From a virus (lineage: Duplodnaviria; Caudoviricetes): 42,512 bases of DNA. Where the stretch lies: positions 1-42,512 of the IMG/VR virus record IMGVR_UViG_3300037467_001543; one strand, given 5' to 3'. A program made the translations under genes and the position numbers. A model generated the notes under the pieces. The model searched no databases. It worked only from the letters and a program-made list of their open reading frames with translations, and had not been told where the DNA came from. Of the stretch, positions 128-42,512 are shown in pieces. Numbering within the stretch: position 1 is the first letter of the stretch; the number at the start of each line of letters is the position of its first letter.

Positions 128-248
128 TCGCCGCCATCTCGGTGTCCACGGTGCTCTGGCGCTGCGCGACGTCACCCACCGGCGGCATCGGCGGCACCTC
201 GTCCGCCCGCGGCGGAAACAACGGGCGCGGCTTGCCGGGATCGCTCAT
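1..248 (-). CDS. Hypothetical protein (~86 aa) spanning the circular junction; continues 42385..42373
   Basis: ATG at 248 overlaps the portal stop (ATGA). It reads MSDPGKPRPLFPP...ELVRVLAQRP to TGA at 42375-42373, which overlaps the GTG of the next gene. Not in the ORF track. Confidence 0.8.
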   Translation of the reverse strand, partial: MSDPGKPRPLFPPRADEVPPMPPVGDVAQRQSTVDTEMAAKIERAVLEPVMKRLGNQAMPYGLARQLVMLEGEIIAELVRVL

Positions 249-2425
249 TGCACTGTCTGCCCTTCTGCACCGGCCGGCTCAGGCGGTGCCATCGCCTGCT
301 CAGCCTCGGCATGCGCGGCCATCACAGGCAGCGCCGGCATCCCCAGCATGCGCGATACCAGCTCACGGACCACCAACTTGACGCTGTCCGGATCAATTTT
401 GCCGACGGTGTCCAGACGCTTCGTTTCGGCGTCGTAGATCTTGTCGGCCAGCTGCTCCTGCAGATGCACGACCTGCGCCTTCAGCGACGACACCTCGGCA
501 TCCGCCTGCTGCGCCAGCTTCTGCCCGTGCGCCGCGACCGTCTGTAGTTGCTGCTGCAACTGCACCACCTGCGGATCCGGCCCATCATCCCTGTATTGCG
601 GCGGCAAGCCTTTTTTCATTCTGTCAGCGAGCTGATCAGCGCCCGGAAAATCGGCGTTCTGCGCCCAGAAATCACCGATCACCTGCCACGCGGCGGGATT
701 GCGCGCCATAATCTGGCTGAACGCGTCGAACGCCTGCTGGCGCTTGGTGGCGTAGCTCGGCCCAACGTCGCTTTCGACCGCGTAACGGCCGACATTCGGG
801 TTCCAAATGGTCCGGATCGCCTGCGCCGGGTCGGCCTGGCCGTCACCGTTCATCGTCGTCGTCGGCGGACGGTTCGGATCCGGCTGCACCTGGTGCGCGT
901 GCTGCGCATTCGGATCGACATGGATCGTCTGCTCGCTGCCGGTTTCGTCCATGATCAGCAGCACACGCTCAGTGTTATACACTTTCGGGATCAGATCGAT
1001 AAGTATTCGCCCAGTAAAACGAATTGCGCTCGCTAAGTGATCAATCACATGATACGTCGCGTTGTCGCCCTGGCGCTGCCTGGCATTGATCGCAACGCCG
1101 GACGTCTCGTTGCTCGGCTGGCCCATCACCGCCTGATACTGGCCAGTGGCCATCATCATCTCGGCCTGCGCCACCTTCAGCCCCTCGATGTAGGCCTGCG
1201 CCATGACCGGCGGCTGCGCCCGCTGCGGCATCGGCAGCGCGGTGCCCGTCTCAGGATCAAACCCCTGATACAGCAGCACCGACGGGTTCGTGGTGTTGGC
1301 TTGCTCCCAGGCCTGCTGATACGGCCCCAGCGCCTCGGCGGTGCCGATGAACGGCGCCTTGCTCTGCAGCGCGACAAACTCGGCGGCGCTGCTGCTATAC
1401 CAATTGTATAGACGCTGTGCATCACGCAGGTGCCGCGTGTGACTGACCCAATCCAGCTTGCCGTCGACGATGATCTCCTCACATGGCACGCGCACGATCG
1501 GCACATACCGCCCAGGCCACGCCTTGCGGTCGATGATCTCGTTGTCGACGATCAGAAACCATTCGATCTCGGGGACGGCAATCTTGCGCGTCCGCCCCAC
1601 CAGGCGGCGCGCCTTCAGCACCGGCAGCACGCCGTCGGGCAGCTCACTGGACCGGATCACGCGCCCGTCCACCAGCTCGAGCAGCTCGTCGTCCCGATCG
1701 CCGCGGCGGTAGTATTCCATCATCGCAACGTGCTTTTCGTCCGTCCGGTGCTCTGGCAGGTCGGCGATCGGCACGTTGGTGTCGGTGTCGTCGTCATAAT
1801 CCGGCCGGTCGTCATCATCACCGCGGCGCGGGTATTTCTCCTTGTAGGTGTTGCGCTCCATCTCCGAAACGATAATGCCCCACGCGGCATCCGACCCGTC
1901 ATACTGCTGGATGTCGGGGTCGAGGTAGACCTTCGTGGGGTCCGGGATGCGCCGGATGAATATATCTTGATCGAAACTCTCCTCGTCGACGTAGTCGGTC
2001 AGCACCCGCCAGTAGCCAATGCCGCCGACGACCTGGTTATACGTCGCAGTCGCATAGGCCAGCTGCGCGTTGCTGATGTATTCGATGTGCCGGCAGACGC
2101 CCTGGTAGATCTGCGCCGCCTCATAGGTCGCACGCTCGCCGGTCGGGCTGATCCGGATCTGCGCCGGGTTTTGTCTCGCGTCGTTAATGACCTGCAGGCA
2201 GTGAATGCGCGCCTTGTTGATCGTCAGGCACGGCCGGTCGACGCGGCTGGTGCGGGTCTTGTCGTCCCACTGGTAGTTGTTGAGGTCGTCACCGTTGGCG
2301 AAACGGACATCCTCGCGGAAATGCTCGTGCGCCTCGTGCTGGTGCTGGCGCGCACGATCCAGCCGCTCGCGGAACTCGTCGATGATCTCTTTGTCGTTGC
2401 GGTCAGCCACTACATGCCCATCCAC
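245..2425 (-). CDS. P22-like portal protein
   Basis: 726 aa directly after terL, with DVRFANG..QW, RPCLTIN, SNETSGVAINARQRQG and GPSYATKRQ motifs and a C-terminal coiled coil. Confidence 0.95.
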   Translation of the reverse strand: MDGHVVADRNDKEIIDEFRERLDRARQHQHEAHEHFREDVRFANGDDLNNYQWDDKTRTSRVDRPCLTINKARIHCLQVINDARQNPAQIRISPTGERATYEAAQIYQGVCRHIEYISNAQLAYATATYNQVVGGIGYWRVLTDYVDEESFDQDIFIRRIPDPTKVYLDPDIQQYDGSDAAWGIIVSEMERNTYKEKYPRRGDDDDRPDYDDDTDTNVPIADLPEHRTDEKHVAMMEYYRRGDRDDELLELVDGRVIRSSELPDGVLPVLKARRLVGRTRKIAVPEIEWFLIVDNEIIDRKAWPGRYVPIVRVPCEEIIVDGKLDWVSHTRHLRDAQRLYNWYSSSAAEFVALQSKAPFIGTAEALGPYQQAWEQANTTNPSVLLYQGFDPETGTALPMPQRAQPPVMAQAYIEGLKVAQAEMMMATGQYQAVMGQPSNETSGVAINARQRQGDNATYHVIDHLASAIRFTGRILIDLIPKVYNTERVLLIMDETGSEQTIHVDPNAQHAHQVQPDPNRPPTTTMNGDGQADPAQAIRTIWNPNVGRYAVESDVGPSYATKRQQAFDAFSQIMARNPAAWQVIGDFWAQNADFPGADQLADRMKKGLPPQYRDDGPDPQVVQLQQQLQTVAAHGQKLAQQADAEVSSLKAQVVHLQEQLADKIYDAETKRLDTVGKIDPDSVKLVVRELVSRMLGMPALPVMAAHAEAEQAMAPPEPAGAEGQTVQ

Positions 2426-21607: not shown

Positions 21608-21826
21608 ATGCTACACATCGCTGCCGGGGTCGGCCTCGGCATATTCGTGGGCGTCATGTTGCTGAACAGCTGGGCCAGCTGGACGACCCGCCGCCAGGTC
21701 AGGCGCCAAATGCGGGCGTGGCGGACGCCAGAGCCGCCGAGGCCGCTCTATCAGCGCGCCGCCGGCTGGGCCGCCTACACGGTGATCGGTGTAACCGTCG
21801 TGGTGGTGATCGCAACCGTCGTCTAG
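21608..21826 (+). CDS. Small 2-TM membrane protein
   Basis: Two hydrophobic helices; converges on the ejection gene. Confidence 0.6.
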   Translation: MLHIAAGVGLGIFVGVMLLNSWASWTTRRQVRRQMRAWRTPEPPRPLYQRAAGWAAYTVIGVTVVVVIATVV

Positions 21827-24276
21827 GGCGCGCCAGTCGCCCCGGCGTTGGTCTGCAGCAGCTGCTCCTTGCGGTCGGCAATGGCGCGCTCGACCTTGCG
21901 CAGCGCAGCCGCCCGCTTGGCTGGCAGGTAGACGTTGGAGTAGGCGCCGAGCGCGGCATTGCCGAGGCCTGCCGCCGGGCTCATGCCGATGCCGACATGC
22001 AGCCCCATGTTGGCCGCGCCGCGCACCGCGACGCCGAGCGGCGTTTCCGGCTGCGGCGCGCCGCGCTGGATCTGCTGGAACGTGTCCGACCCCTTCACCT
22101 TGGCCATCCGGTCCTGCAGGTCCAACGCCGCCAGCTCGTTGCGCACGGCAATGACGTTGTTCACCTGCTCCTCGGTTAGGTTCTTGGCCGGATGGATCCC
22201 GCGCACGCTCTGGCCCTGATAGATGTCGTCGAGCATCTTCTGCACCTTGGACAACTGCAGCTGCCCGCCCTGTCCGGTCAGCTTGCCCGACCCGGTCTGA
22301 TAGCGCTGCAGGAACTCCATCTGGTTGATCGGGATCGACGCGGCGCGATACGCCGGTAGATACACACTGCCATACGTCGGCGCGCCCTCGGTGATGGTGC
22401 GGTCGAGCGTCGGCAGCAGCCCCTCGAGGATGTCCTTGGCCAGCCGGATCGCCGCCGCCTCATCACCCGACCCGCGGCCCTTTTTCAGGTAGTCGGTGAT
22501 GTTCTGCCGGACCCCGTAAAGCAGGCTCGGCGCCTCCTCGAGGTTGCCGTCGCGATCGAACAGCCCGGCGCGGATCCGCTGCAGGATCGGCCGCACCGCA
22601 TCGCGCTTGCCGATGTCCGACTGCAGCGCCTGGTCGATCTCGCGCAGCGTGTCGGCCGCCGATACCGGCTGCTCGTTGTCGAAAACATGCAGCGGGCCAG
22701 GCCGGACGTTCTCTCGGTCCTGGTAGGCGCGATCGAGGGCAATGTCGTCGCGCGCGTCGTTGCGCAGCAGGTCGACCATGATGTTGTTGTTTTCGCGCTC
22801 GATCGCCTCGGCGCGCTGCCGATAGGCCGTGTCCCCTGCGCGGGCCACCTTGTCGTCGAGCGCATGCGGCTGGTTGAAATCGCGCGCCGCCAGCAGCCGC
22901 TGCACGCCCGGGACATAGACGGTGTTGTCGACCATGCCTGGCCCGGCGCGGTCGGTCGCGCTCTGGTTCACCGTCGTCTCGAGGTCGCGCAGCGCCTCGG
23001 CGCGGGTCTTTGGCGGGATCGGCTCGCTGGTCGCCTCGGCGCCGCCCGCCTGCGGCCGCGGCGGTCCACCGGCCGGCGGCACCACCTCGCCCTCGATCGT
23101 CGGCGGCCCCATGCCGGGTCGTGGGCCTGCCGCCGGCAGCGCGCGGCCCGCAGCCGGCACCGGCACCCCTTCAGTCGCCCGCGGCACGCCAGGCACACTG
23201 CCCAGCAGCCCGGTCGCCAGCAGGTTGCCGGCCGTCTCAACGCCAGGCTGCGCCCATTCCGGCACCGATTGGCCGAGCAAATGGCCGACACCAGCACCGC
23301 TCGCGCCGGCCAGTGCCAGCGCCGGACCACCGCCGCCGACCGCCATCTGCGCGCCGCCCGCCGCCATCTTGCGCGCGAGTTGCTCGTTATCCGTCGTCGC
23401 CGGCACGTCCGACGGCGCCGCGCTCTGGCTGCCCGGCAGGTGATAGCCCAGCCAGTTAATGCCGGCGCTGGCCGGCGCACCGACGCCCTGGTCCTCGAGG
23501 AGGTAGCGGCGCAGCTCGTCGGGTATGCCGGGATAGCCCATCGCGCGGCGCACCGCATCGACCGCGGTCACGCCGCCGGTCACCGCCAGCTTGCCGAGCG
23601 CCGCCCCGGGCGAGGCCAGGAAATCGCCCATGCCGCCGACGCCCTCGAGCACGCCGGCCGCCACGTTGCGTGCCACGCCCCGCGCATCCGCCACGACCTT
23701 GTCGGGGGTGTCAGACGGTTTGTCTGACGGTGTCGGCGCGGCCGGCGCCTGGCCGTAGCCCAGGCCTTTCAGCTTGGCCTGCAGATCCTCGACCGACGGC
23801 GCCGGCAACTGGGTGCGCGTCTCTGCACCTAGTTGCGGCCCGGCCGCAGCAGGCGCCCCGCCGCCCAGCCGGCCCAGCCTGGCCTTGAGGTCGTCCACCG
23901 ACGGCGCATCGCCGCCGGCCGCCATCGCCTGGCCGCCGATCGACGTGACTTTGCCGGCATAGCCGGGATCCGCGGTGTTGTAGCCGCCCCGCACCAGCGC
24001 CTGCGCCTGCGCGCCGGCATCGCCACCCCGCGGCACCCCGGCATAGCGCTGGCTGTTCACAAGTGAAACGAACGCCTGGGCCGCATCGCTCACCGACGGG
24101 AACGACGCCACCCGACCCCCGGGGCTGATGCCGAACACGTTGTTGCCGCTGATATGCTCGCCCCAGCCGGTTTCCTGGCCGATGATGCCGAGAACCACGC
24201 CCGGCGCCAGCCCGGTCGCCTTGCTGACGTCCTGCGCCAGCGGGCCGTAGGTGGTGGCAAAATCCCCCTGGTTCAT
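21823..24276 (-). CDS. DNA ejection protein with N-terminal GH73/FlgJ-like muramidase
   Basis: GQETGWG...NNVFGI...F.SVSDA...RY...GGYNTADPGYAGKV; last of three ejection-type genes. Confidence 0.82.
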   Translation of the reverse strand: MNQGDFATTYGPLAQDVSKATGLAPGVVLGIIGQETGWGEHISGNNVFGISPGGRVASFPSVSDAAQAFVSLVNSQRYAGVPRGGDAGAQAQALVRGGYNTADPGYAGKVTSIGGQAMAAGGDAPSVDDLKARLGRLGGGAPAAAGPQLGAETRTQLPAPSVEDLQAKLKGLGYGQAPAAPTPSDKPSDTPDKVVADARGVARNVAAGVLEGVGGMGDFLASPGAALGKLAVTGGVTAVDAVRRAMGYPGIPDELRRYLLEDQGVGAPASAGINWLGYHLPGSQSAAPSDVPATTDNEQLARKMAAGGAQMAVGGGGPALALAGASGAGVGHLLGQSVPEWAQPGVETAGNLLATGLLGSVPGVPRATEGVPVPAAGRALPAAGPRPGMGPPTIEGEVVPPAGGPPRPQAGGAEATSEPIPPKTRAEALRDLETTVNQSATDRAGPGMVDNTVYVPGVQRLLAARDFNQPHALDDKVARAGDTAYRQRAEAIERENNNIMVDLLRNDARDDIALDRAYQDRENVRPGPLHVFDNEQPVSAADTLREIDQALQSDIGKRDAVRPILQRIRAGLFDRDGNLEEAPSLLYGVRQNITDYLKKGRGSGDEAAAIRLAKDILEGLLPTLDRTITEGAPTYGSVYLPAYRAASIPINQMEFLQRYQTGSGKLTGQGGQLQLSKVQKMLDDIYQGQSVRGIHPAKNLTEEQVNNVIAVRNELAALDLQDRMAKVKGSDTFQQIQRGAPQPETPLGVAVRGAANMGLHVGIGMSPAAGLGNAALGAYSNVYLPAKRAAALRKVERAIADRKEQLLQTNAGATGAP

Positions 24277-25838
24277 CAGTGCATGCCCGGCAGGTTCATC
24301 ACGTCGCCATTCTTCTCGATCACGTCGAGCGAGCGACCGAACGCCGCCCGCTCAGATGGCGACATGCCCTGCAGCACCTTGGTGCGCTTCGCGTCGTCCA
24401 GCATGTCGACCACGAACGCCCGCGGGTCATGCGACGTCTGCCAGTCAGACAGGAACGACGACCACTTAGCCGGCGGCAGGCCCTGCGCCCGGAAATCCAG
24501 CATCGCCGCCTGGCGGTAGCGCTCGAGCGCGATCATCGCCGACAGCACATCCTTGTTCGCCAAGGTCGAGATGTGCGTGTTCGGGTTGCCTGACAGCGCC
24601 GACGCCAGTCGAGCGTCAGAACCGCTGCCCATTTTATTGACATACTGCGTCATATACTTTTGCAGTTCTTGGTATTTGTCGACGGCGCCGACCTCCTGCG
24701 GGTTGACCCCGAACGTCGTCGCCCGCGCCTGTAGGAACGCCTTCACATTGTTAAACCACTGCGTGCCAGGCCCGGTCTGCACGCCCGGATCCTTCATTAA
24801 GCTCCAGGCCTGGGCCAGCGGGAACACCCGGTCGTTGTAGGTGCCGGACGCTGCCAGGTCGTCGGTGTAGGCCCTGGCGCTGGCCTCCTGTGTCGGCACA
24901 TCCCCCGGCGCCGGCCCGCTCGTCGTCGTCAGCTGCGGCCTGGCCGGTCCCGGCTGCGCCGCCGGGTTAAGCCGCGGCGGATTGGCCGGCGAGGGGTTGG
25001 ATTGCGGCCCCGGCAGCCCGCCCGTCGGCTGGCCGCCCTGCGGCGTCACCAGGTGACCGAGCCCGCGTTGCGTCATGTATTCGCCGAGCGTCGTCTGCAC
25101 CTCCTTGCCGCTGCCGTCGATGTATTTGATCGGCTGCCCAGCCACGTCCGGCCCGATGCCCAGCTGCGCGCCAGGCTGCGGCGGCGTCGTCACGCCGTAG
25201 CCCTCGCTCGCCGGACGGGTGACCGCCGACTGCGCCACGCCGCCAGGCCCGGTGATCGTCTGCGGCGTGCCGTAGACCTGGCCCTGCTGCATGTCGGGCG
25301 GCAACAGCGCCACGCGCATCTGCTCGAGCCGCGCCCGCAGCTGCCCCTCGTCGTTCGGCAGCATCGACAGCGCCCGCAGCGCGCGCGATTGCGGCAGCAC
25401 TCCCTGGTTAATCAGCATCGCCGTCTGCGCCGCCACGGCATCGTGGAGCTGGCCAGGTGGCGCCTTGAGCGCACCGGTCAGCGCGCCGACCAGGGCGGCG
25501 TTGCCGCGCATGCCCTGGTCCTGCAGCGCACCACCGACGCGCGTCGCACTCTCGACACCAGCGCCAACCGCCAGCGACGCATCCGGCCCCGCCGCCACGA
25601 GATTGCGCTGGAATTTTGCGGGATCGAAATTGCCCTCGCTGTCGATCGCGCCCTGATACGCCTCCCCGGCCAGCTGCTTGGCCTGCGCCTCTCTGAGGCC
25701 CCACGCGCCTGCGCCGACCTGCTGCGCACGCCCCAGCGCACTGAGATAATCGAACTGCGGCGGCACGGCACCGCCCGCGATCTTGTCGAGCAGGCTGCCG
25801 CGGGACAGGGCGGATGTGAGGGCGAGGGTGTCGCTCAT
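24276..25838 (-). CDS. DNA ejection (internal virion) protein, gp20-position
   Basis: Ala/Gly/Gln-rich, 520 aa, between the gp7-like and muramidase-bearing genes. Confidence 0.7.
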   Translation of the reverse strand: MSDTLALTSALSRGSLLDKIAGGAVPPQFDYLSALGRAQQVGAGAWGLREAQAKQLAGEAYQGAIDSEGNFDPAKFQRNLVAAGPDASLAVGAGVESATRVGGALQDQGMRGNAALVGALTGALKAPPGQLHDAVAAQTAMLINQGVLPQSRALRALSMLPNDEGQLRARLEQMRVALLPPDMQQGQVYGTPQTITGPGGVAQSAVTRPASEGYGVTTPPQPGAQLGIGPDVAGQPIKYIDGSGKEVQTTLGEYMTQRGLGHLVTPQGGQPTGGLPGPQSNPSPANPPRLNPAAQPGPARPQLTTTSGPAPGDVPTQEASARAYTDDLAASGTYNDRVFPLAQAWSLMKDPGVQTGPGTQWFNNVKAFLQARATTFGVNPQEVGAVDKYQELQKYMTQYVNKMGSGSDARLASALSGNPNTHISTLANKDVLSAMIALERYRQAAMLDFRAQGLPPAKWSSFLSDWQTSHDPRAFVVDMLDDAKRTKVLQGMSPSERAAFGRSLDVIEKNGDVMNLPGMH

Positions 25839-26644
25839 GTGGTGTAGCCTCCGCTTTGCAGCGGGATCCCGGGATCAAATGCGCCGCCGCCGGTATAGCC
25901 GCCCGTTCCACCGCCACCGCCCGGCAGGTATTTCTGCGCGAGCTGGTAGCCCAGATAGTTGTTGATGCCGCTGTTGACGGCGTTGCCGATGCTGTTAGCG
26001 CCGCCCAGCGCGCCGGCCGCCTGTGCCGTGCCGGCCGCCGTCGTCGCCGACGCCGCGGTGTTGGCCGCATTCGCCCCCACCGCGCCCGTGCCGGCTGCTG
26101 CACTCTCGCCCAGCTGCCCGACACCGGCCAGGCGGCTGTATCGGTTCTGGACGTTGCCCTGCTGTGCGGTGTTCAACTGCAGCAGGTCGGCGAACCGTTT
26201 TTCGTAGTTGCTGTCTGCAAGGCCGGTCGCGAACGTGGCCGCGCCTTTCAGCGCCGCGCCGCTGACGCCGAGCCCGCGCGCCGCCGCCGCCGATTGCGTG
26301 GCTTTGAGGCCTTGTTGCAGCTGAAACTGATACCCCGGCGTGCGCTCGAGCGCCGCCTGCATGTCCGGCCCGGATCCGAGCGCTGCCGCCTGGCTGACAT
26401 AGTCCGGCCCGCCACCCGTGCGCGTCAGCGCCGCATCCGTCAGCGCCGGCAGGATGTTCTGCCCGGTCTGCGTGAACGGCAGCAGGTCGCCGCGCGTCGT
26501 CTGATATTGCTGCTCAGCGATCCGTGCCGCCTCGCGCGAGGCATCCGCTGCCTTGTTGCCCGCGGTCATCGAGCCCAGCAACCCGGCGCCGCCGGAAATC
26601 GCCGAACCGGCAACGATCGCAGCCGGGAGTGAAATGCTACCCAT
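25835..26644 (-). CDS. DNA ejection protein, P22 gp7-like
   Basis: Gly/Ala-rich N-terminus; PGYQFQLQQG...SAAAARG...SGAALK; ATG 26644. Confidence 0.82.
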   Translation of the reverse strand: MGSISLPAAIVAGSAISGGAGLLGSMTAGNKAADASREAARIAEQQYQTTRGDLLPFTQTGQNILPALTDAALTRTGGGPDYVSQAAALGSGPDMQAALERTPGYQFQLQQGLKATQSAAAARGLGVSGAALKGAATFATGLADSNYEKRFADLLQLNTAQQGNVQNRYSRLAGVGQLGESAAAGTGAVGANAANTAASATTAAGTAQAAGALGGANSIGNAVNSGINNYLGYQLAQKYLPGGGGGTGGYTGGGAFDPGIPLQSGGYTT

Positions 26645-27677
26645 TGCCCACGTCCCACAGATAATCGCGCCGATACTCTTTGGCGCCGAGTGCCTCATAT
26701 AGCCGCCCGGCCCGCGCGCCGCGGCCATGCACGGTATGGTGCAGCGTCAGCCGCTGGATCCCCTCGGCGCGGAACAGGTCGCGTGATGCCGTCAGCAGCC
26801 GCCGCCCCAGGCAGTGCCGGGCGAACCCAGGCGCCACGTAGAAGGGGCCATGCACCATCGTCGGCGGCGCATCCGCCTCGACGTTGTGGTCGCGCGTCCA
26901 GAGGCAGTAACCGCCGATCGCGCCGTCGACGCGCGCGATCAGCACGCGCAGTTCGCCACGCCGCGCCAGCTCGTCCATGACATCCCGTTGCAGGCGAAAC
27001 TGCCCCTCGCGCCCCTCGGTCGCCTCGGCATGATGCACCGCGCCCAGCCGCTCGAGCGCCTCGGCCACGTCCTCCCACCGCTCCTCGCCGACCGAGATAA
27101 ACGGCTGTGGAAACGCGAGCCGCACCGACGCCTGGTCTTTCAGGCGCTCGATCGCATCGCGCCGCTCGACCAGGCGCGCCGCGCGTGCCGGCCAGTCCAG
27201 CTGCAGGTTGATGCGGTCGGCCCGCTCCCACGCCCACCAGTTAAACGGTGACTGCAGCAGGTGCTCCTGCAGCGCCGCGGCAGTGCGGCAATCGCTCAGG
27301 TCGTCATATGCGACGCTCATCACCTGCGGCTGCCCGGCCAGCGCCTCGAGCGCCGCGTTGCGCCGCCACAGCGCCTCCCACGGCGGCTCAACGCCCAACG
27401 CCGCGAGCGACGCGCCCACTGACTGCACCGGGCGGCGGATGACGGCCATGCGCAAATCCGGGATCGCCGCGCGAAACAATGGCCACCATTCGGCCGCACC
27501 GGTTTCGACCGAGCCACGAAAGCGCCGAAAAACCGCCTCCAGCAGCACATCCACGCTGTCAGCCTCGATCGCCAGGTCATGCCCGACCGGCCCGACGGCA
27601 GCGATCGACAGCCACTGCGACAGCCACCACGTCCGCGAGCGAGGCAGCGCAAACACGAGGAACGGCGGCGGCGTCAT
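26637..27677 (-). CDS. Sulfotransferase-like (P-loop) + GNAT acetyltransferase fusion
   Basis: N-terminal FLVFALPRSRTWWLS...IRRP..V..SL; C-terminal ARVDGAIGGY...FYVAPGFARHCLGRRLL...RLYEALG. Confidence 0.65.
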   Translation of the reverse strand: MTPPPFLVFALPRSRTWWLSQWLSIAAVGPVGHDLAIEADSVDVLLEAVFRRFRGSVETGAAEWWPLFRAAIPDLRMAVIRRPVQSVGASLAALGVEPPWEALWRRNAALEALAGQPQVMSVAYDDLSDCRTAAALQEHLLQSPFNWWAWERADRINLQLDWPARAARLVERRDAIERLKDQASVRLAFPQPFISVGEERWEDVAEALERLGAVHHAEATEGREGQFRLQRDVMDELARRGELRVLIARVDGAIGGYCLWTRDHNVEADAPPTMVHGPFYVAPGFARHCLGRRLLTASRDLFRAEGIQRLTLHHTVHGRGARAGRLYEALGAKEYRRDYLWDVGNG

Positions 27678-36834: not shown

Positions 36835-38070
36835 TTAGAGCGCATCTGCAACGACGACAGCCCACTCAGGCCGCACAGCCGCAGCGCCATAGAGCGCATC
36901 CAGGCGGGTCACGCTCTGGTCGTTGACGCCATCGTAGAACGTAATGAGGCGCAGGCTGACGCCCTGGTAGCTTTCACGGTAGCTCTCGATCACACCACGC
37001 GTCGGCATTTCCATTGGAACCATCGCCAGAGTGAACGCAAGCGGGTGAAAGATAAAATTCTTTCTGTAGACCTCGCTGTCGTTCGTCAGCACGGTGATGG
37101 CCGCGCCGTTGGCTGGGCTCGCCGTGACGGTTTCATATGCAACCGGGTTGCCCGACGATGCCGGCGTCAGCGCTGGATAGATCGGGATCGACGTTGCAGC
37201 CGCCGCCACATCGGCGGTGACCACGAACTGCGCCAGCTGCCCGGTCGAGGTCTTCGATGCCCGGTTCACGGCGTAGACCCCAGCGAAGGTGATCACGTCG
37301 CCTTTTTTGAGGGACTTGCCGGACGCCACAGCCGAGGTGGTGATGGTGCTGCCCGTCTGGTTGGCGCCAGACACCGTCGGCATCGTTCCATAGGTGCCGG
37401 TGGTGTGCGTCGGCAAATTCGCGTCCTGCGCCCAGTCCATGCCCAAGACGTCTTTCTTGATCATGGCGGTTTCGTATTGATCGCCGACTTTGCTTTGCTG
37501 ATTGAACAGCCCCGAGAAGCTCGACACCGTGCGCGCCATGGTGATCGGATCGAGGATCGCCTTGCGCTGGCCACGCGGCGTCGACAGCTTGTCGAGCAGC
37601 GCACCGGCCGTCGCCCAGGTGGTCAGCGTCGGCGAGATCGTGTTGTTCGATCCGTCGACGTTATGGACCAGATTGGGGATGGTATTGATGACGCTGGCGA
37701 AGACGTCCGCGGCAATTCCATTCACTATCGTATTGACCGCCGGCTCGATGACCCGCTGGCTGTAGTCCTGCATGGTCAGCGTGCGATCAGCATACGAAAA
37801 GCTGATGTCTACACCGACCTGTTTTGCAACCGTCAGCGTGGTGGTCACTTCGGTGGTGTTCTGCGGCGATGCCGTAGGCCCGCTACGCAGCACGTAGTCA
37901 TTCGGCAGACGGATCTGGATCTGGCTGCCCGGCTTCTGCCCGGCGACCGTTGGATTAGCGAACTGGTCCTCCCACTGCCGATCGATCATCTGCAGGAAGG
38001 GATTCGCATTGCGAAACAACTGGATCGCGCGCCTGACCACCAAGGTCGGCGTAATAAGACTGTTCGCCAC
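36835..38070 (-). CDS. Major capsid protein (P22 coat family)
   Basis: MANSLITP, IQIRLP, QVGVDISF, GDVITFAGV.AVN insertion domain, RLDALYG..AVRPEWA. Confidence 0.95.
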   Translation of the reverse strand: MANSLITPTLVVRRAIQLFRNANPFLQMIDRQWEDQFANPTVAGQKPGSQIQIRLPNDYVLRSGPTASPQNTTEVTTTLTVAKQVGVDISFSYADRTLTMQDYSQRVIEPAVNTIVNGIAADVFASVINTIPNLVHNVDGSNNTISPTLTTWATAGALLDKLSTPRGQRKAILDPITMARTVSSFSGLFNQQSKVGDQYETAMIKKDVLGMDWAQDANLPTHTTGTYGTMPTVSGANQTGSTITTSAVASGKSLKKGDVITFAGVYAVNRASKTSTGQLAQFVVTADVAAAATSIPIYPALTPASSGNPVAYETVTASPANGAAITVLTNDSEVYRKNFIFHPLAFTLAMVPMEMPTRGVIESYRESYQGVSLRLITFYDGVNDQSVTRLDALYGAAAVRPEWAVVVADAL

Positions 38071-38301: not shown

Positions 38302-39141
38302 TTACCGGTTAGACCAGTTTAGGCTTCGGCTCCAGCGCTCGAACTCCTCCATGCTGCCTTTTTCCGGATCCGGCGCGGCTGGCGCACTGCGCGCAGCCGG
38401 CGGCGGCGTGTGCGGGGGCGGCAAAGGCGAGGCCCGCCGCGGAGGAACAGGGGGAACGGTGCGGCGGGCCTCGAGGCGCGCTGAGAGCTGGCCCAGCGCC
38501 ATCGCTCTTGCGGTCGGCGAGCGCATCTCGACGATCCGCTCCAGCTCTTCCGGCTGTTCGTAGAGCGCGCCCGCGACCCTATGCCCGCCCGGCATCTCCA
38601 CCAACAGCTTTGCCAGCTCCTGGTCCGCGCCCAACTCGATTAGCTGCGAGCGCCGCGTGTCCCAGTCTGGAAATTCCGCAGCGCCGGCCTGGACAAACGC
38701 GCGCACGCGCGCCTCTTCGGCCGCCCGCGCCTCGATATACTGCTGCACCCGCGGATCGTTCATCCAGGCGTCCGGCAAGCCATCGTTCGTCGCCTGGCCG
38801 CCGCCGTTATACTGTGCCCGCAACGCCTGCAGCTCACGCTCGAGCTGGTTCGCCCGCTCGCGCTCCAGGTATTTCTGCCGCGTGATCTGCGCCAGGCGGC
38901 GGTTTGTGCTCGCCCGCTCGCGTTCGATCCGCTGGCTCTCGGTTTCCGCCTCACCATCACCGCCGCCGTCGGCCTGCTGCTGGCCGTCCGCCTGCTGCTG
39001 CCCCTCGGCCGGCTGCTGCTGCTCTGGCTGCGCCTGCTCCCCGCCATCCGGCTCGCTGCTCAGCACATGCTTCGGCTGATACTCTTCGGTCGGCGCGGCC
39101 CCGCCACCGCCGGCCTGTTCCGTCGTTACAGTTTCAGACAT
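38302..39141 (-). CDS. Scaffolding protein
   Basis: Directly upstream of the coat gene; acidic/Gln-rich N-terminus, coiled coil (RRLAQITRQKY), Pro-rich tail ending SMEEFERW. Confidence 0.8.
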   Translation of the reverse strand: MSETVTTEQAGGGGAAPTEEYQPKHVLSSEPDGGEQAQPEQQQPAEGQQQADGQQQADGGGDGEAETESQRIERERASTNRRLAQITRQKYLERERANQLERELQALRAQYNGGGQATNDGLPDAWMNDPRVQQYIEARAAEEARVRAFVQAGAAEFPDWDTRRSQLIELGADQELAKLLVEMPGGHRVAGALYEQPEELERIVEMRSPTARAMALGQLSARLEARRTVPPVPPRRASPLPPPHTPPPAARSAPAAPDPEKGSMEEFERWSRSLNWSNR

Positions 39142-39368
39142 TGCCCTTGCTCATGTGTATTGATAGGCGTCCCCCGGGCCGCCAGCCCGCACGGGAGGCT
39201 GCACCCAGGGTCCGGCCTGGCGGATCGAGTGCCTGCAGGAGCAGCACCGGCCCGCGTGACCTCGTATTCCGCGCCCCCGGGGTTCGTTGCGCATGACGAT
39301 CGCGTCAATGCCCGGGGGCCGGTCCGGCGTGTCGGTGGGGTAGCAGGCCACCGCGCCCCGCCTGACCT

Positions 39369-40148
39369 TTATTGCTGTGGTTGTCCACCTGCTGGGCGGA
39401 TGTTTTCCGGCGAAAACACGATGTATTCGTCGATTGGACGCTGGTCGGTGAAGTCACGCATCCGACTAAATATGATGCCGTCGTGGCCGTTGGCCTTCGC
39501 TTCCTGCCCGAGCAGATACAAGCCGTAATTGTAGTAACCAGATCCCGGCCGATCGAAGGCCTTCACGCTCTGGATGTAGTCCGCGAGCCGCTCGTCCTCG
39601 GGATTGCCCGACCACGCCAGGTCGTTGAGCCACGCGTCCTGCGCGCGTGAAACGTCTTCCTCGTTGATGTGCAGCGGCTTCTCGATCTTGAGGTGATACT
39701 GGCCCACCTTGCCATAACCGGCTGCCGTTTCCGGATCCGGGGTGAAATGAAATCCCATCCCACTATCCGCGTCGTTGTTCCATCGGCCGGTCTTTTCCGC
39801 CGCCGCCTGGTCGAACGCCTCAAAAGGCGCCGCGGCTCGCGTGCCGTGATAGACAACCCGCGGCAGCCCCGCCTCATCCACGATCTTCGATTTGCCGAAC
39901 CAGCCCCGCACCCCAGCCCCACCACCGCCAGGCGCCACACTACCAGCCAGCAGCGCCTGGCCATAGGCCCCGGCAGCGTCCCGCCAGGTCTGCGGGTCGA
40001 GCGCTGCGCGATAGGCGTCGCCCAGGTTGTCGCGGTTCCACGACCACACATCGGCCGGCGTCATCTGGCCCGGCAACGGGTTCGCCGGGTCGGCCGGGAG
40101 CAGCGCGGTCGGCAGGCCGGACGCTAACGGGTTGGGTGCGCGGGGCGT
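39369..40148 (-). CDS. Shared-leader protein with ART-PolyVal-like ADP-ribosyltransferase domain
   Basis: WFGKSKIVDEAG.P.VVYHGT, GFHFT, YHLKIEKPL, GHDGII, EYIVFSPENI. The leader homologous to the 41958 gene extends 24 codons upstream of the track's TTG (40076) to ACG 40148. Confidence 0.8.
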   Translation of the reverse strand, partial: TPRAPNPLASGLPTALLPADPANPLPGQMTPADVWSWNRDNLGDAYRAALDPQTWRDAAGAYGQALLAGSVAPGGGGAGVRGWFGKSKIVDEAGLPRVVYHGTRAAAPFEAFDQAAAEKTGRWNNDADSGMGFHFTPDPETAAGYGKVGQYHLKIEKPLHINEEDVSRAQDAWLNDLAWSGNPEDERLADYIQSVKAFDRPGSGYYNYGLYLLGQEAKANGHDGIIFSRMRDFTDQRPIDEYIVFSPENIRPAGGQPQQ

Positions 40149-40370
40149 CTAGATGTCCCTGAACTGAGGCAGCCGCAGCTGCGGCGGCATCGACATCTCG
40201 ATCTCAGCCGGCACCGGATCCGGCGGGGCGCCGGGCCCGAAGTGCAGATCGAGATAGTCCTGCCGCGTGATGGGGAAGTCCTCAGGATGGAACCTCTCAA
40301 GGACCGGATACCGCCCATGGAGGGAGTTGTATTGGTCCAGTGAGAGAGCGAACGGCGGATCTTGCTTCAT
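40149..40370 (-). CDS. Small acidic partner protein (putative immunity/chaperone)
   Basis: GGAGG RBS; overlaps the 3' end of the upstream gene by 74 nt; PITRQDYLDL...AEIE..MP motif. Confidence 0.65.
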   Translation of the reverse strand: MKQDPPFALSLDQYNSLHGRYPVLERFHPEDFPITRQDYLDLHFGPGAPPDPVPAEIEMSMPPQLRLPQFRDI

Positions 40371-41958
40371 CGGCGGTTGTCCTCCCGGCGGCGTAGTCTG
40401 ACCACACCCCGTTGATGTCCTTCCGCAGACTTATAAGCCGTTTCGCACTGGGACTGAAGAGCCCCCGGCCGGTTTCCCACAGAATGCTCTGCAGCTGCCG
40501 CGGCAGCAGGCCCAGCTCGGACGCCACGCGGCGGTAGGCGTCGGCATAGGCGGGATAGAGCCCCTGCACGCCCGTGACGCCGCTGCTCGAGCCTTCGCCG
40601 CCCAGCCCATGACCGACGATGACGTCGTCCTGGCCCAGCGGCATCAGCTGACCGGCGGCGATGGCGTGGGTGTCATTGGTCAGGTCGCCGAACGGCGCGT
40701 GCGGAGCGACGATGTTGTTGTAGAACGAGCGGACCTTGTGCGCGGCGCCCACACGCTGGCTGATGTTGTAGAGGCTCGGGTCGCGCAGGATCGATATCGC
40801 GTTCTCTATGTGGTCGGTCGGCCCCCAGCTGAACGCTGCCGGCTTGCCGCTCTTGACCGTCACCGGCCCGAGGCTTTGCCCTTCCGGCGAGAGGTTCATC
40901 ACCAGCTGGTCAGGATTGTGAACCTGCTGCAGATAGCGGACGAACCAGGCGGCGTCGCGGTCCGGCAGGTCCGCCAGCCGGGTGCCGTCCTGGTCCAGCA
41001 TGTTCTGGATCTCGCCGGCCAGCCTGATCTGGCCCTTCTTGCCGGTCGCCAGGCGGCTTGCGACGTCCTGCTGGCCATAGGCCCGCATCGCAGGCGTCAG
41101 CGTCGCGCTGCCCTCGTTCAGCAGGCTGTTCAGCGTGACGCCGAACCGGGCGTTGTTCATGTTCCACTCGGTGGCCGGGCTCATCACCGCGATGCCACCT
41201 GCCACCTGGCGCGGCAGCAGGCCGGTCTTGGCGGCAATGTCATCAGCCATCACCCGTGCGCCGTCATACCAGAGCGGTGCCCGCTGCTTGATGATGTCGG
41301 GCGCCTGGTCCCACAGCCAGCGCAGGTTGCCAGCCACATGCTCGACCAGCTGGTCGTGTAGCTCCTGCGGCGTCGAGCCCGGCGCGACCCGCATGAATGG
41401 CGGCTGCTCAGCGTCGCCGATCCGAAACCCGGTGCCGTAGCGGCTGACGATGGCGCCGTTGCGCTCGAACGACACCGGATCCCCGGCCGCACTCGCCAGG
41501 TCGACATGCAGCGTGGCGGTGTTATGGCCGACATCGCCCGCCGCCTTCACCGTCGGCACGCGCGTGCTGACCCGCTCGAGCAGGCCGGGGATACCAAGCT
41601 GCTCGGCCGTCAGCGGCAGGCCGGCGTAGCGCTCGATCCCTGGCAGCGCCGACGCCGGACCACCACCCGAGGCGCCCACGAACGCCCCAGGGAACAACGA
41701 AAACCGCTGCCCCAGCTCGGTCGGCTCGCCCGTGGGCGCGACGAACGCATGCAGCATGTCCATCGTCGACCCACCGGTCGGCCCGGCCGGCAGCACCCCG
41801 TAGGTCGAGGGGTCGGTGCCGGCGCGCCAGGCGTCCAGAGCGTTCTCGCGGTTCCACTCCCAGACGTCCGACGGCGTCATCTGCCCCGGCAATGGCGCAG
41901 CCGGATCGGTCGGCAGCAACGCCGTCGGAAGCCCGAACGAGAGCGGGTTACGCGCCAC
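40297..41958 (-). CDS. Shared-leader protein with C-terminal glycosylase-like (DUF7178-like) domain
   Basis: GTG 41958; LWYDGA, IAVMSP..W..N, HKVRSFYNNI, TNDTHA, YADAYRRVA.ELGLLPRQLQSILW. Confidence 0.7.
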   Translation of the reverse strand: MARNPLSFGLPTALLPTDPAAPLPGQMTPSDVWEWNRENALDAWRAGTDPSTYGVLPAGPTGGSTMDMLHAFVAPTGEPTELGQRFSLFPGAFVGASGGGPASALPGIERYAGLPLTAEQLGIPGLLERVSTRVPTVKAAGDVGHNTATLHVDLASAAGDPVSFERNGAIVSRYGTGFRIGDAEQPPFMRVAPGSTPQELHDQLVEHVAGNLRWLWDQAPDIIKQRAPLWYDGARVMADDIAAKTGLLPRQVAGGIAVMSPATEWNMNNARFGVTLNSLLNEGSATLTPAMRAYGQQDVASRLATGKKGQIRLAGEIQNMLDQDGTRLADLPDRDAAWFVRYLQQVHNPDQLVMNLSPEGQSLGPVTVKSGKPAAFSWGPTDHIENAISILRDPSLYNISQRVGAAHKVRSFYNNIVAPHAPFGDLTNDTHAIAAGQLMPLGQDDVIVGHGLGGEGSSSGVTGVQGLYPAYADAYRRVASELGLLPRQLQSILWETGRGLFSPSAKRLISLRKDINGVWSDYAAGRTTADEARSAVRSLTGPIQLPPWAVSGP

Positions 41959-42376
41959 CCGTGGCGCCTGTGGCCCCCGTCGCACCGGTATCGCCACCGG
42001 TATCGCCGGTCGGCCCGGTGCCGCCCTGATCGCCCGGCTGCTGGCTCGGCGTGTTGGCCTCGACCGCCTGGGCCAGCGCCTGCGTCTGCTGGGCGAGCTG
42101 CGCCGAGAGGTCGTGCAGCTGCTGCAGCGACGCCGGATCGATCCCGCCCTGGCCCTGCGCCGCCGACAGCGCCGCCTCGAGCTGGTCGTGCAGCCCCTGC
42201 AGCAACGTCTCGGCGGACGCCATGACGGTGCCCTGCGCCGCCACCTCATCCTTCAGCGACTGGATCTCAGCCTGTAGCGTGTCACTCATACGTTGGATCT
42301 CCTCCTGTAACGCTTCGATTGCTCCCGCCAACACGCGCGGAAACCAGCCCGGCAACCACTCGAGCACCGACCTCAC
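41948..42376 (-). CDS. Coiled-coil phage protein with Gly/Thr tail (alternative start ATG 42289)
   Basis: GTG coupled to the junction gene; AGGAGG RBS before ATG 42289; DPASLQQL...LAQAVEANT; (GAT)n tail. Confidence 0.7.
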   Translation of the reverse strand: MRSVLEWLPGWFPRVLAGAIEALQEEIQRMSDTLQAEIQSLKDEVAAQGTVMASAETLLQGLHDQLEAALSAAQGQGGIDPASLQQLHDLSAQLAQQTQALAQAVEANTPSQQPGDQGGTGPTGDTGGDTGATGATGATGGA

Positions 42377-42385
42377 GGACGCTGC

Positions 42386-42512
42386 GCCAGCACCCGCACC
42401 AGCTCGGCGATGATTTCGCCCTCGAGCATCACCAGCTGCCGCGCCAGCCCGTAGGGCATCGCCTGGTTGCCTAGTCGCTTCATCACCGGCTCGAGCACGG
42501 CGCGCTCGATCT
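42386..42512. repeat. Terminal direct repeat, right copy
   Basis: Identical to 1-127. Confidence 0.95.

Follow-up and report, generated by a model that had tools for sequence, protein, structure and literature searches.

The window analysed here is the whole of a 42.5-kb virus record (42,512 nucleotides), the ends of which are direct terminal repeats. Read across the join of these repeats, the minus strand carries terminase, a P22-type portal, a 142-aa ORF, gene 1, a small ORF, gene 2, scaffold and the P22 coat, followed 3′ of the coat by tail genes and then by three genes in the ejection slot (Table 1). The 142-aa ORF, which has a homologue in L016 (40% over 92 aa), is the one ORF between the portal and gene 1. 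This P22-like podovirus order bears out the sequence-only reading, which had placed genes 1 and 2 in the portal-to-scaffold slot. No sigma-70-like promoter was found in 38900-42512. The runs with this stretch are soil and rhizosphere metagenomes, and no RNA dataset was found among the listed runs that hold it. Between gene 2 and the scaffold gene, a 227-base gap (39142-39368) contains a 66-aa ORF candidate (39151-39351) that has no family match; this region is retained in strains X5 and X6.

Table 1 Features of the cargo-gene locus and of its surroundings, with positions in the window
Feature	Position	Strand	Remarks
P22-type portal	245..2425	-	PF16510, E 2e-151; upstream of the candidate cargo genes across the terminal-repeat join
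142-aa coiled-coil-like ORF	41948..42376	-	its end overlaps the GTG start of gene 1
Gene 1, 553 aa	40297..41958	-	partial leader and DUF7178 payload
Gene 1 leader	41734..41958	-	Pro-rich start and helix 1 conserved, helix 2 diverged
Small ORF, ≤73 aa, start uncertain	40149..40370	-	sits between both candidate cargo genes
Gene 2, 259 aa	39369..40148	-	full leader and ART-PolyVal payload; likely ACG start at 40148-40146
Gene 2 leader, 74 aa	39927..40148	-	whole family core; predicted helix-turn-helix hairpin
Exchangeable payload segment of gene 2	39394..39946	-	strain contigs match both flanks and diverge within
Head scaffolding protein	38302..39141	-	phrog_8865, E 1e-13
P22-type coat protein	36835..38070	-	PF11651, E 4e-48
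Three ejection-slot genes: gp7-like, 520 aa, 817 aa with glucosaminidase	21823..26728	-	phrog_598 'DNA ejection' (first gene), PF01832

Gene 2 lacks an ATG, GTG or TTG at its start, where an ACG directly follows a TAG (40148-40146). Relatives have TAG-ATG at this position in one case and TGA-TTG or TGA-ATG in others, the ACG is unchanged in the covering contigs of X3, X5 and X7, and all four strain changes upstream of the first gene 2 ATG are synonymous. A sequencing error behind the ACG is rejected by the strain contigs together with these codon changes, and the only alternative TTG, at 40076, becomes CTG in a strain. Translation from a weak ACG start appears likely; alternatively, gene 2 would be reached by readthrough from the small ORF, which lies in the same frame. 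The small ORF itself shows four synonymous changes among five distinct strain codon changes, and searches returned no significant homologue (GenBank matches at E about 1); matches in L040 and L041 turned out to be spurious when L040 was read. It is possibly a partner or immunity protein of gene 1.

Genes 1 and 2 begin with a common gap-free leader, as the sequence-only reading had noted: 36 of 50 amino acids are identical between 41949-41800 and 40133-39984, as are 108 of the 150 bases. The many synonymous third-position changes that it remarked upon are also there, with mismatches distributed 11/10/21 over the codon positions, half of them in the third, and with 14 synonymous and 14 non-synonymous codons (pS 0.49 vs pN 0.21). 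When the window was searched by six-frame tblastn, the two copies scored 84-85 bits against each other and the next match at most 24 bits. The stretch behind these 50 residues had been read as a Gly-rich linker from which the payloads diverge. The payloads do diverge, but the stretch is not linker only: the helix that is best conserved across the family, DAA..YG.ALL.GS.APG, lies within it in gene 2, reaching 39927, and has diverged in gene 1. Against the family profile, the gene 2 leader scored 84 bits over positions 4-72 of 72, and the gene 1 leader 31 bits over positions 8-53 of 72 only. The shared 50 aa are the start of a conserved N-terminal domain of about 65 residues, and gene 1 retains only the first half of the family core. 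The gene 1 leader reached 84 bits to the gene 2 leader versus 52 to the next compared leader, in a comparison that left out P0031, a near-identical relative of gene 1; since its nearest compared leader is that of gene 2, the pair probably arose by local duplication or conversion.

The leader is not confined to these two genes. When 1.84 billion representatives were searched with a first profile, made from 8 leaders, 77 proteins matched; 73 were retained, and four (P0035, P0063, P0072 and P0077) were set aside as unrelated because their matches were internal or lay in repeats. A second profile from 21 leaders matched 96 proteins. Sixty of these had not been found before, which brought the family to 133 proteins, among them gene 2 of the window and a protein nearly identical to gene 1. 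Family members are short (median length 247 aa, longest 545 aa), and in 121 of 124 measured proteins the leader ends no more than 110 residues from the start. In the consensus, a Pro-rich beginning that contains N-x-L motifs is followed by TWADA..W..QNL.D.W.A, DPQTW and DAA.QYGNALLMGTTAPG. For the last 65 residues of the gene 2 leader, AlphaFold models two helices (pLDDT 73), both amphipathic and neither membrane-spanning, and no hydrophobic segment was found in the first ~110 residues of the 133 leader proteins. Helix 2 varies least and is retained even in a second subtype, in which the middle of the leader is replaced. In all 136 leader pairs pN was below pS, and the leader is under purifying selection.

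No significant match to a known domain was obtained for the leader in Pfam, PHROGs, BFVD or PDB: a Foldseek search of the leader model against BFVD gave 0 matches at E ≤ 0.001, and the PDB sequence search chance matches only. The best ESM Atlas clusters are unnamed (0.87-0.88), and P22 gp16 (0.82), MafB (0.78) and PT-TG (0.77) lie at chance level. Among 50,697 GenBank phage records the gene 2 leader had no tblastn match, and the first 60 residues of gene 1, used as a protein query, found none among proteins of 304-968 aa. The idea that the leader was copied from the N-terminus of an ejection protein was rejected, as it had no match among 302 gene products, nor any similarity to a structural or ejection protein among them; the three ejection-slot genes of the window likewise gave no leader match. 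A literature search found no description of the leader; word searches are poorly suited to a motif that has no name, and the leader may figure among unnamed domains in the supplements of Iyer et al.

The two payloads of the window belong to different families. That of gene 1 matches DUF7178 (PF23802, E 9e-18), its sole Pfam match, and had no match in NCBIfam or PDB; the ESM Atlas returned DUF7178 clusters only, and the gene 1 model, built from a 3-row alignment, has a pLDDT of 33. None of these results confirms a glycosylase (HhH-GPD) fold and with it the glycosylase-like label that the sequence-only reading had given this domain, although its conserved K...D-T-H pattern presumably recalls Endo III-type enzymes. 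A search of the literature for DUF7178 found no description, and no loci of DUF7178 relatives were found in viral contigs. One further family member, P0104, joins a full leader to a DUF7178 payload 38% identical to that of gene 1. For gene 2, the payload had been recognized from the sequence as an ART-PolyVal-like ADP-ribosyltransferase, and PF18760 agrees (E 2e-15; 58.3 bits vs a curated cut-off of 31.2). The ART-PolyVal active site is an H-Y-D triad (PMC5512222); by eye, gene 2 has the His in YHGT, GFHF where the family has Tyr, and a Glu in the last strand. Gene 2 is a predicted ADP-ribosyltransferase, the activity of which is not assured.

Across the family the C-termini vary widely. The 124 payloads of at least 60 aa fall into 26 single-linkage clusters, the largest of which (71) is chained via two-domain proteins and hides several families. 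ART-PolyVal is the label of 53 of the 133 proteins at E ≤ 0.01, many under the curated cut-off, followed by GNAT (8), Alt/VIP2-type ART (PF03496; 6) and DUF7178 (2), with one each for SAM methyltransferase, LPD23 with a peptidase, and ParB-like; most other clusters are nameless. Payloads without BLAST similarity were found in 32 of 40 leader pairs with at least 85% identity, a ratio inflated by the de-replication of databases, and 37 pairs showed the reverse, close payloads on distant leaders. One 97-aa protein (P0069) joins the leader straight to a Gly/Ala-rich tail, as an empty cassette that has no payload.

At the gene 2 locus this exchange can be followed among close strains. Contigs from three other soil studies (X5, X6 and X8) match the window through the gene 2 leader to 39946 and then diverge, reading GSTAPGFRAF past this point, and X5 and X6 rejoin the window at 39392-39394 with GLFVAGGAAA and then the common GGQPQQ end (both translated by hand). 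X3 and X4 carry the window's own gene 2 payload. The same locus in other strains retains the leader and continues into another payload, which shows that the payload has been replaced at the leader end. The two boundaries never occur together on one contig, and we infer the joined allele from P0003. This protein of 348 aa has both swap ends, a leader 93% identical and a payload without significant alignment to that of gene 2. Irrespective of locus, P0002 carries a third payload behind a leader 96% identical. In X5, the best-covered strain, 11 of 12 changed leader codons are synonymous.

The genomic context of further leader genes was obtained from pattern scans, which gave 14, 21, 1 and 8 loci, all of them either leader-bearing by profile or duplicates of other loci, that reduce to 25 distinct genes; their slots were assigned by rough gene calls and BLAST to known neighbours. 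Leader fusions had been expected near portal genes, and 23 of the 25 indeed lie in the terminase-to-ejection (head-tail) operon. The slots vary, and the portal-scaffold slot itself accounts for only 7 of these other leader genes. Eight are located between the large terminase and the portal or directly before the portal, 3 further upstream and 5 among coat, adaptor, tail-hub and ejection genes (2 were unplaced), and some stand upstream of the terminase. The leader accompanies at least four dissimilar portal/coat sets (P22-type, SU10-type, phiGT1-like and a fourth). There is one leader gene each in 14 of 14 records, the majority of which are fragments; L062 is a second record with two, bearing different payloads. 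P0004/P0005 (both 34,476) and P0071/P0133 (both 45,963) have same-sized longest contigs and may represent further two-leader genomes. Genome contigs gave one match, on a 15-kb phage-like contig of a MAG. A 1096-aa P22-type portal ORF in one of the loci (L022:1735-5022, minus strand) has an insert of ~340 aa that, by eye, resembles an intein containing the core of a homing endonuclease.

Proteins of other phages connect the payloads, rather than the leader, to virions. Two proteins that are annotated as internal virion or structural, AMP1_38 and RS-PI-1 P5, contain the commonest leader payload, and so does vir555_54, the giant protein in the ejection slot of vir555. DUF7178 is part of the third protein of the zth2-2 ejection slot, of a giant protein of LS06-2018-MD07 and of gp40 of Roseobacter phage CRP-738, which lies between portal and scaffold. 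Sulfitobacter phage phiGT1 gp5, in the portal-scaffold slot, matches P0085 over payload and tail (37.6% over 279 aa). It was detected in virions with 12 spectra and an SC/MW of 0.29, above the authors' contamination level of 0.2 (PMC10386132, Table S3). phiGT1 gp5 lacks the leader, and homology of the leader to the N-terminal head of the phiGT1 and CRP-738 proteins was rejected (hhalign probability 0.15). The presence of gp5 in virions supports the cargo class and not the leader as tag.

The sequence-only reading had proposed a MuF-independent tag that delivers interchangeable effectors; the absence of MuF and the exchange of payloads have held up, and loading into the virion is the part that we infer. 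On balance we think it likely that the leader is an address tag that loads the fusion protein into the virion for injection with the DNA. The cargo proteins would be made late and at low copy, from coupled and often non-ATG starts, and the two amphipathic leader helices would bind an assembly component. The cargo would exit via the ejection apparatus, the three ejection-slot genes being the likely route of delivery, and the payloads, mostly ADP-ribosyltransferase-like but also acetyltransferase, methyltransferase and peptidase, would modify components of the host or of defence systems within minutes of the onset of infection. Conserved leader DNA may double as a recombination anchor for swapping. 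Several points speak against an address tag: no leader protein has yet been detected in any virion, a single specific binding site is difficult to reconcile with a leader that accompanies at least four dissimilar portal/coat sets, gene 1 has lost the best-conserved helix, and the leader resembles none of the structural or ejection proteins among the 302 gene products. Co-folding of portal and leader scored 0.00 in two runs and is evidence neither way.

A different signal would be possible if the cargo is in virions but the C-terminal Gly/Ala-rich tail (KYG[IL]AGL..GGAAA) or the payload directs loading, with the leader as an oligomerisation or unfolding aid. phiGT1 gp5 suggests as much, since it is in virions with payload and tail but with a different N-terminal head in place of the leader; CRP-738 gp40 has a similar tail, and P0069 consists of leader and tail. 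We regard a tail or payload signal as unlikely, as only 43 of 133 members have the tail, which is absent from both window genes and present in the swapped allele, so that it seems to travel with the payload.

Two further alternatives dispense with packaging as an entry route. The proteins might never be packaged and act late in the cell, in superinfection exclusion or host shut-off, the leader being a localisation or stability domain and a recombination anchor. The late-operon position indicates timing only, the slot varies widely, even upstream of the terminase, and the leader lacks a match to structural proteins, all of which would fit such a role; yet the same payloads recur inside internal virion proteins of other phages, the same-slot analogue phiGT1 gp5 is in virions, and fast-exchanged anti-host enzymes would be most useful at entry. 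We give this explanation about as little credence as the tail signal. Still less probable are polymorphic toxins released at lysis to kill neighbouring cells, with the leader as an uptake or pre-toxin domain and the small ORF as an immunity protein. The conserved small ORF after gene 1 completes a layout of conserved N-terminus, variable C-terminus and small ORF that is described for polymorphic toxins (PMC5576092), and MafB and PT-TG are among the nearest named ESM Atlas clusters, at chance level. At 3 of 25 loci, however, the next gene is the portal or tail hub and leaves no room for an immunity ORF, at several others the next gene is conserved whatever the payload, and the gene 2 payload swaps with no downstream gene change at the 39394 boundary. 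The lack of a hydrophobic segment also counts against toxins of this kind, and no tyrosine integrase was found in the window, whereas MuF toxins are tied to temperate phages.

The leader system, for which we favour the address-tag reading, works like the T4 capsid-targeting sequence (CTS) and MuF and is a member of neither family. As in the T4 internal proteins IPI-III, a common N-terminal leader is placed on unrelated variable cargo, with several such genes per genome; the T4 CTS is reported to package foreign proteins, and the cargo to be injected (PMC9026906, PMC12373910). The T4 CTS is a 10-residue propeptide cut by gp21 and carries small-inhibitor cargo in myoviruses, whereas the leader is a predicted two-helix domain of ~65 residues that bears enzyme domains in podoviruses; no prohead protease was found among the window ORFs scanned, and the head is of P22 type. 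MuF polymorphic toxins also combine a conserved N-terminal domain with a variable C-terminal enzyme beside the portal (PMC5576092), and SPP1 gp7 enters the procapsid by binding the portal (PMC6316719). The window shares with MuF and SPP1 gp7 this architecture, a gene close to the portal, here with one ORF in between, and a small ORF downstream of gene 1. It differs in the missing MuF1/MuF2 match, the slot that is not fixed, the presence of two copies in one genome and the lack of a consistent immunity ORF, and MuF is found mostly in siphoviruses and temperate phages, the leader system in podoviruses. That no MuF domain is present had been stated before, and PF04233 and PF06152 indeed had no match in the genome, while both match in control genomes. 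The payload repertoire is that of polyvalent proteins and virion ARTs such as T4 Alt (Iyer et al. 2017, 2022; PMC5512222, PMC9503650), with ART-PolyVal, Alt/VIP2-type ART, GNAT, LPD23, peptidase and ParB-like domains in common. Polyvalent proteins are large and multidomain, whereas leader proteins carry one, rarely two, payload domains behind a short leader.

The principle is known from T4 and MuF; as far as our searches reach, the domain, the phage group and the strain-level evidence for swapping are new. A broader interpretation, to which we assign an even chance, is that the leader is a new MuF-independent virion-loading domain of podoviruses, portable across at least four head modules, and that it defines a mobile one-gene effector cassette able to land anywhere in the late operon. 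The leader would then be a bait for injected anti-host enzymes, about half of them of no known family, and roseophages would draw on the same pool of payloads with another, unrelated tag. The leader bears on how podoviruses select the accessory proteins that they inject. As a short tag with strain-exchanged payloads, it marks a front of the phage-host arms race and singles out many candidates for injected effectors that belong to no known family; if portable, it would lend itself to delivering proteins with P22-like phages.

In the ejection region of the window, the third ejection-slot gene (21823-24276) starts with a glucosaminidase domain (PF01832), which the same-slot genes of G007, G012 and L039 apparently lack, and the gene before the ejection genes (26637-27677) fuses a hydrolase-like domain (phrog_10855) to GNAT and is 57% conserved in L016. 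Like the window genes, phiGT1 gp5 (L052:4674-5837) and CRP-738 gp40 (L042:3678-6185) occupy the portal-scaffold slot and carry the same payload families, with a C-terminal tail like that of the leader family, whereas their N-termini resemble each other and not the window leader. Their common N-terminal motif is weak (13/45 identical, pairwise E 1e-5) and precedes different payloads; it is possibly a second cargo-leader family.
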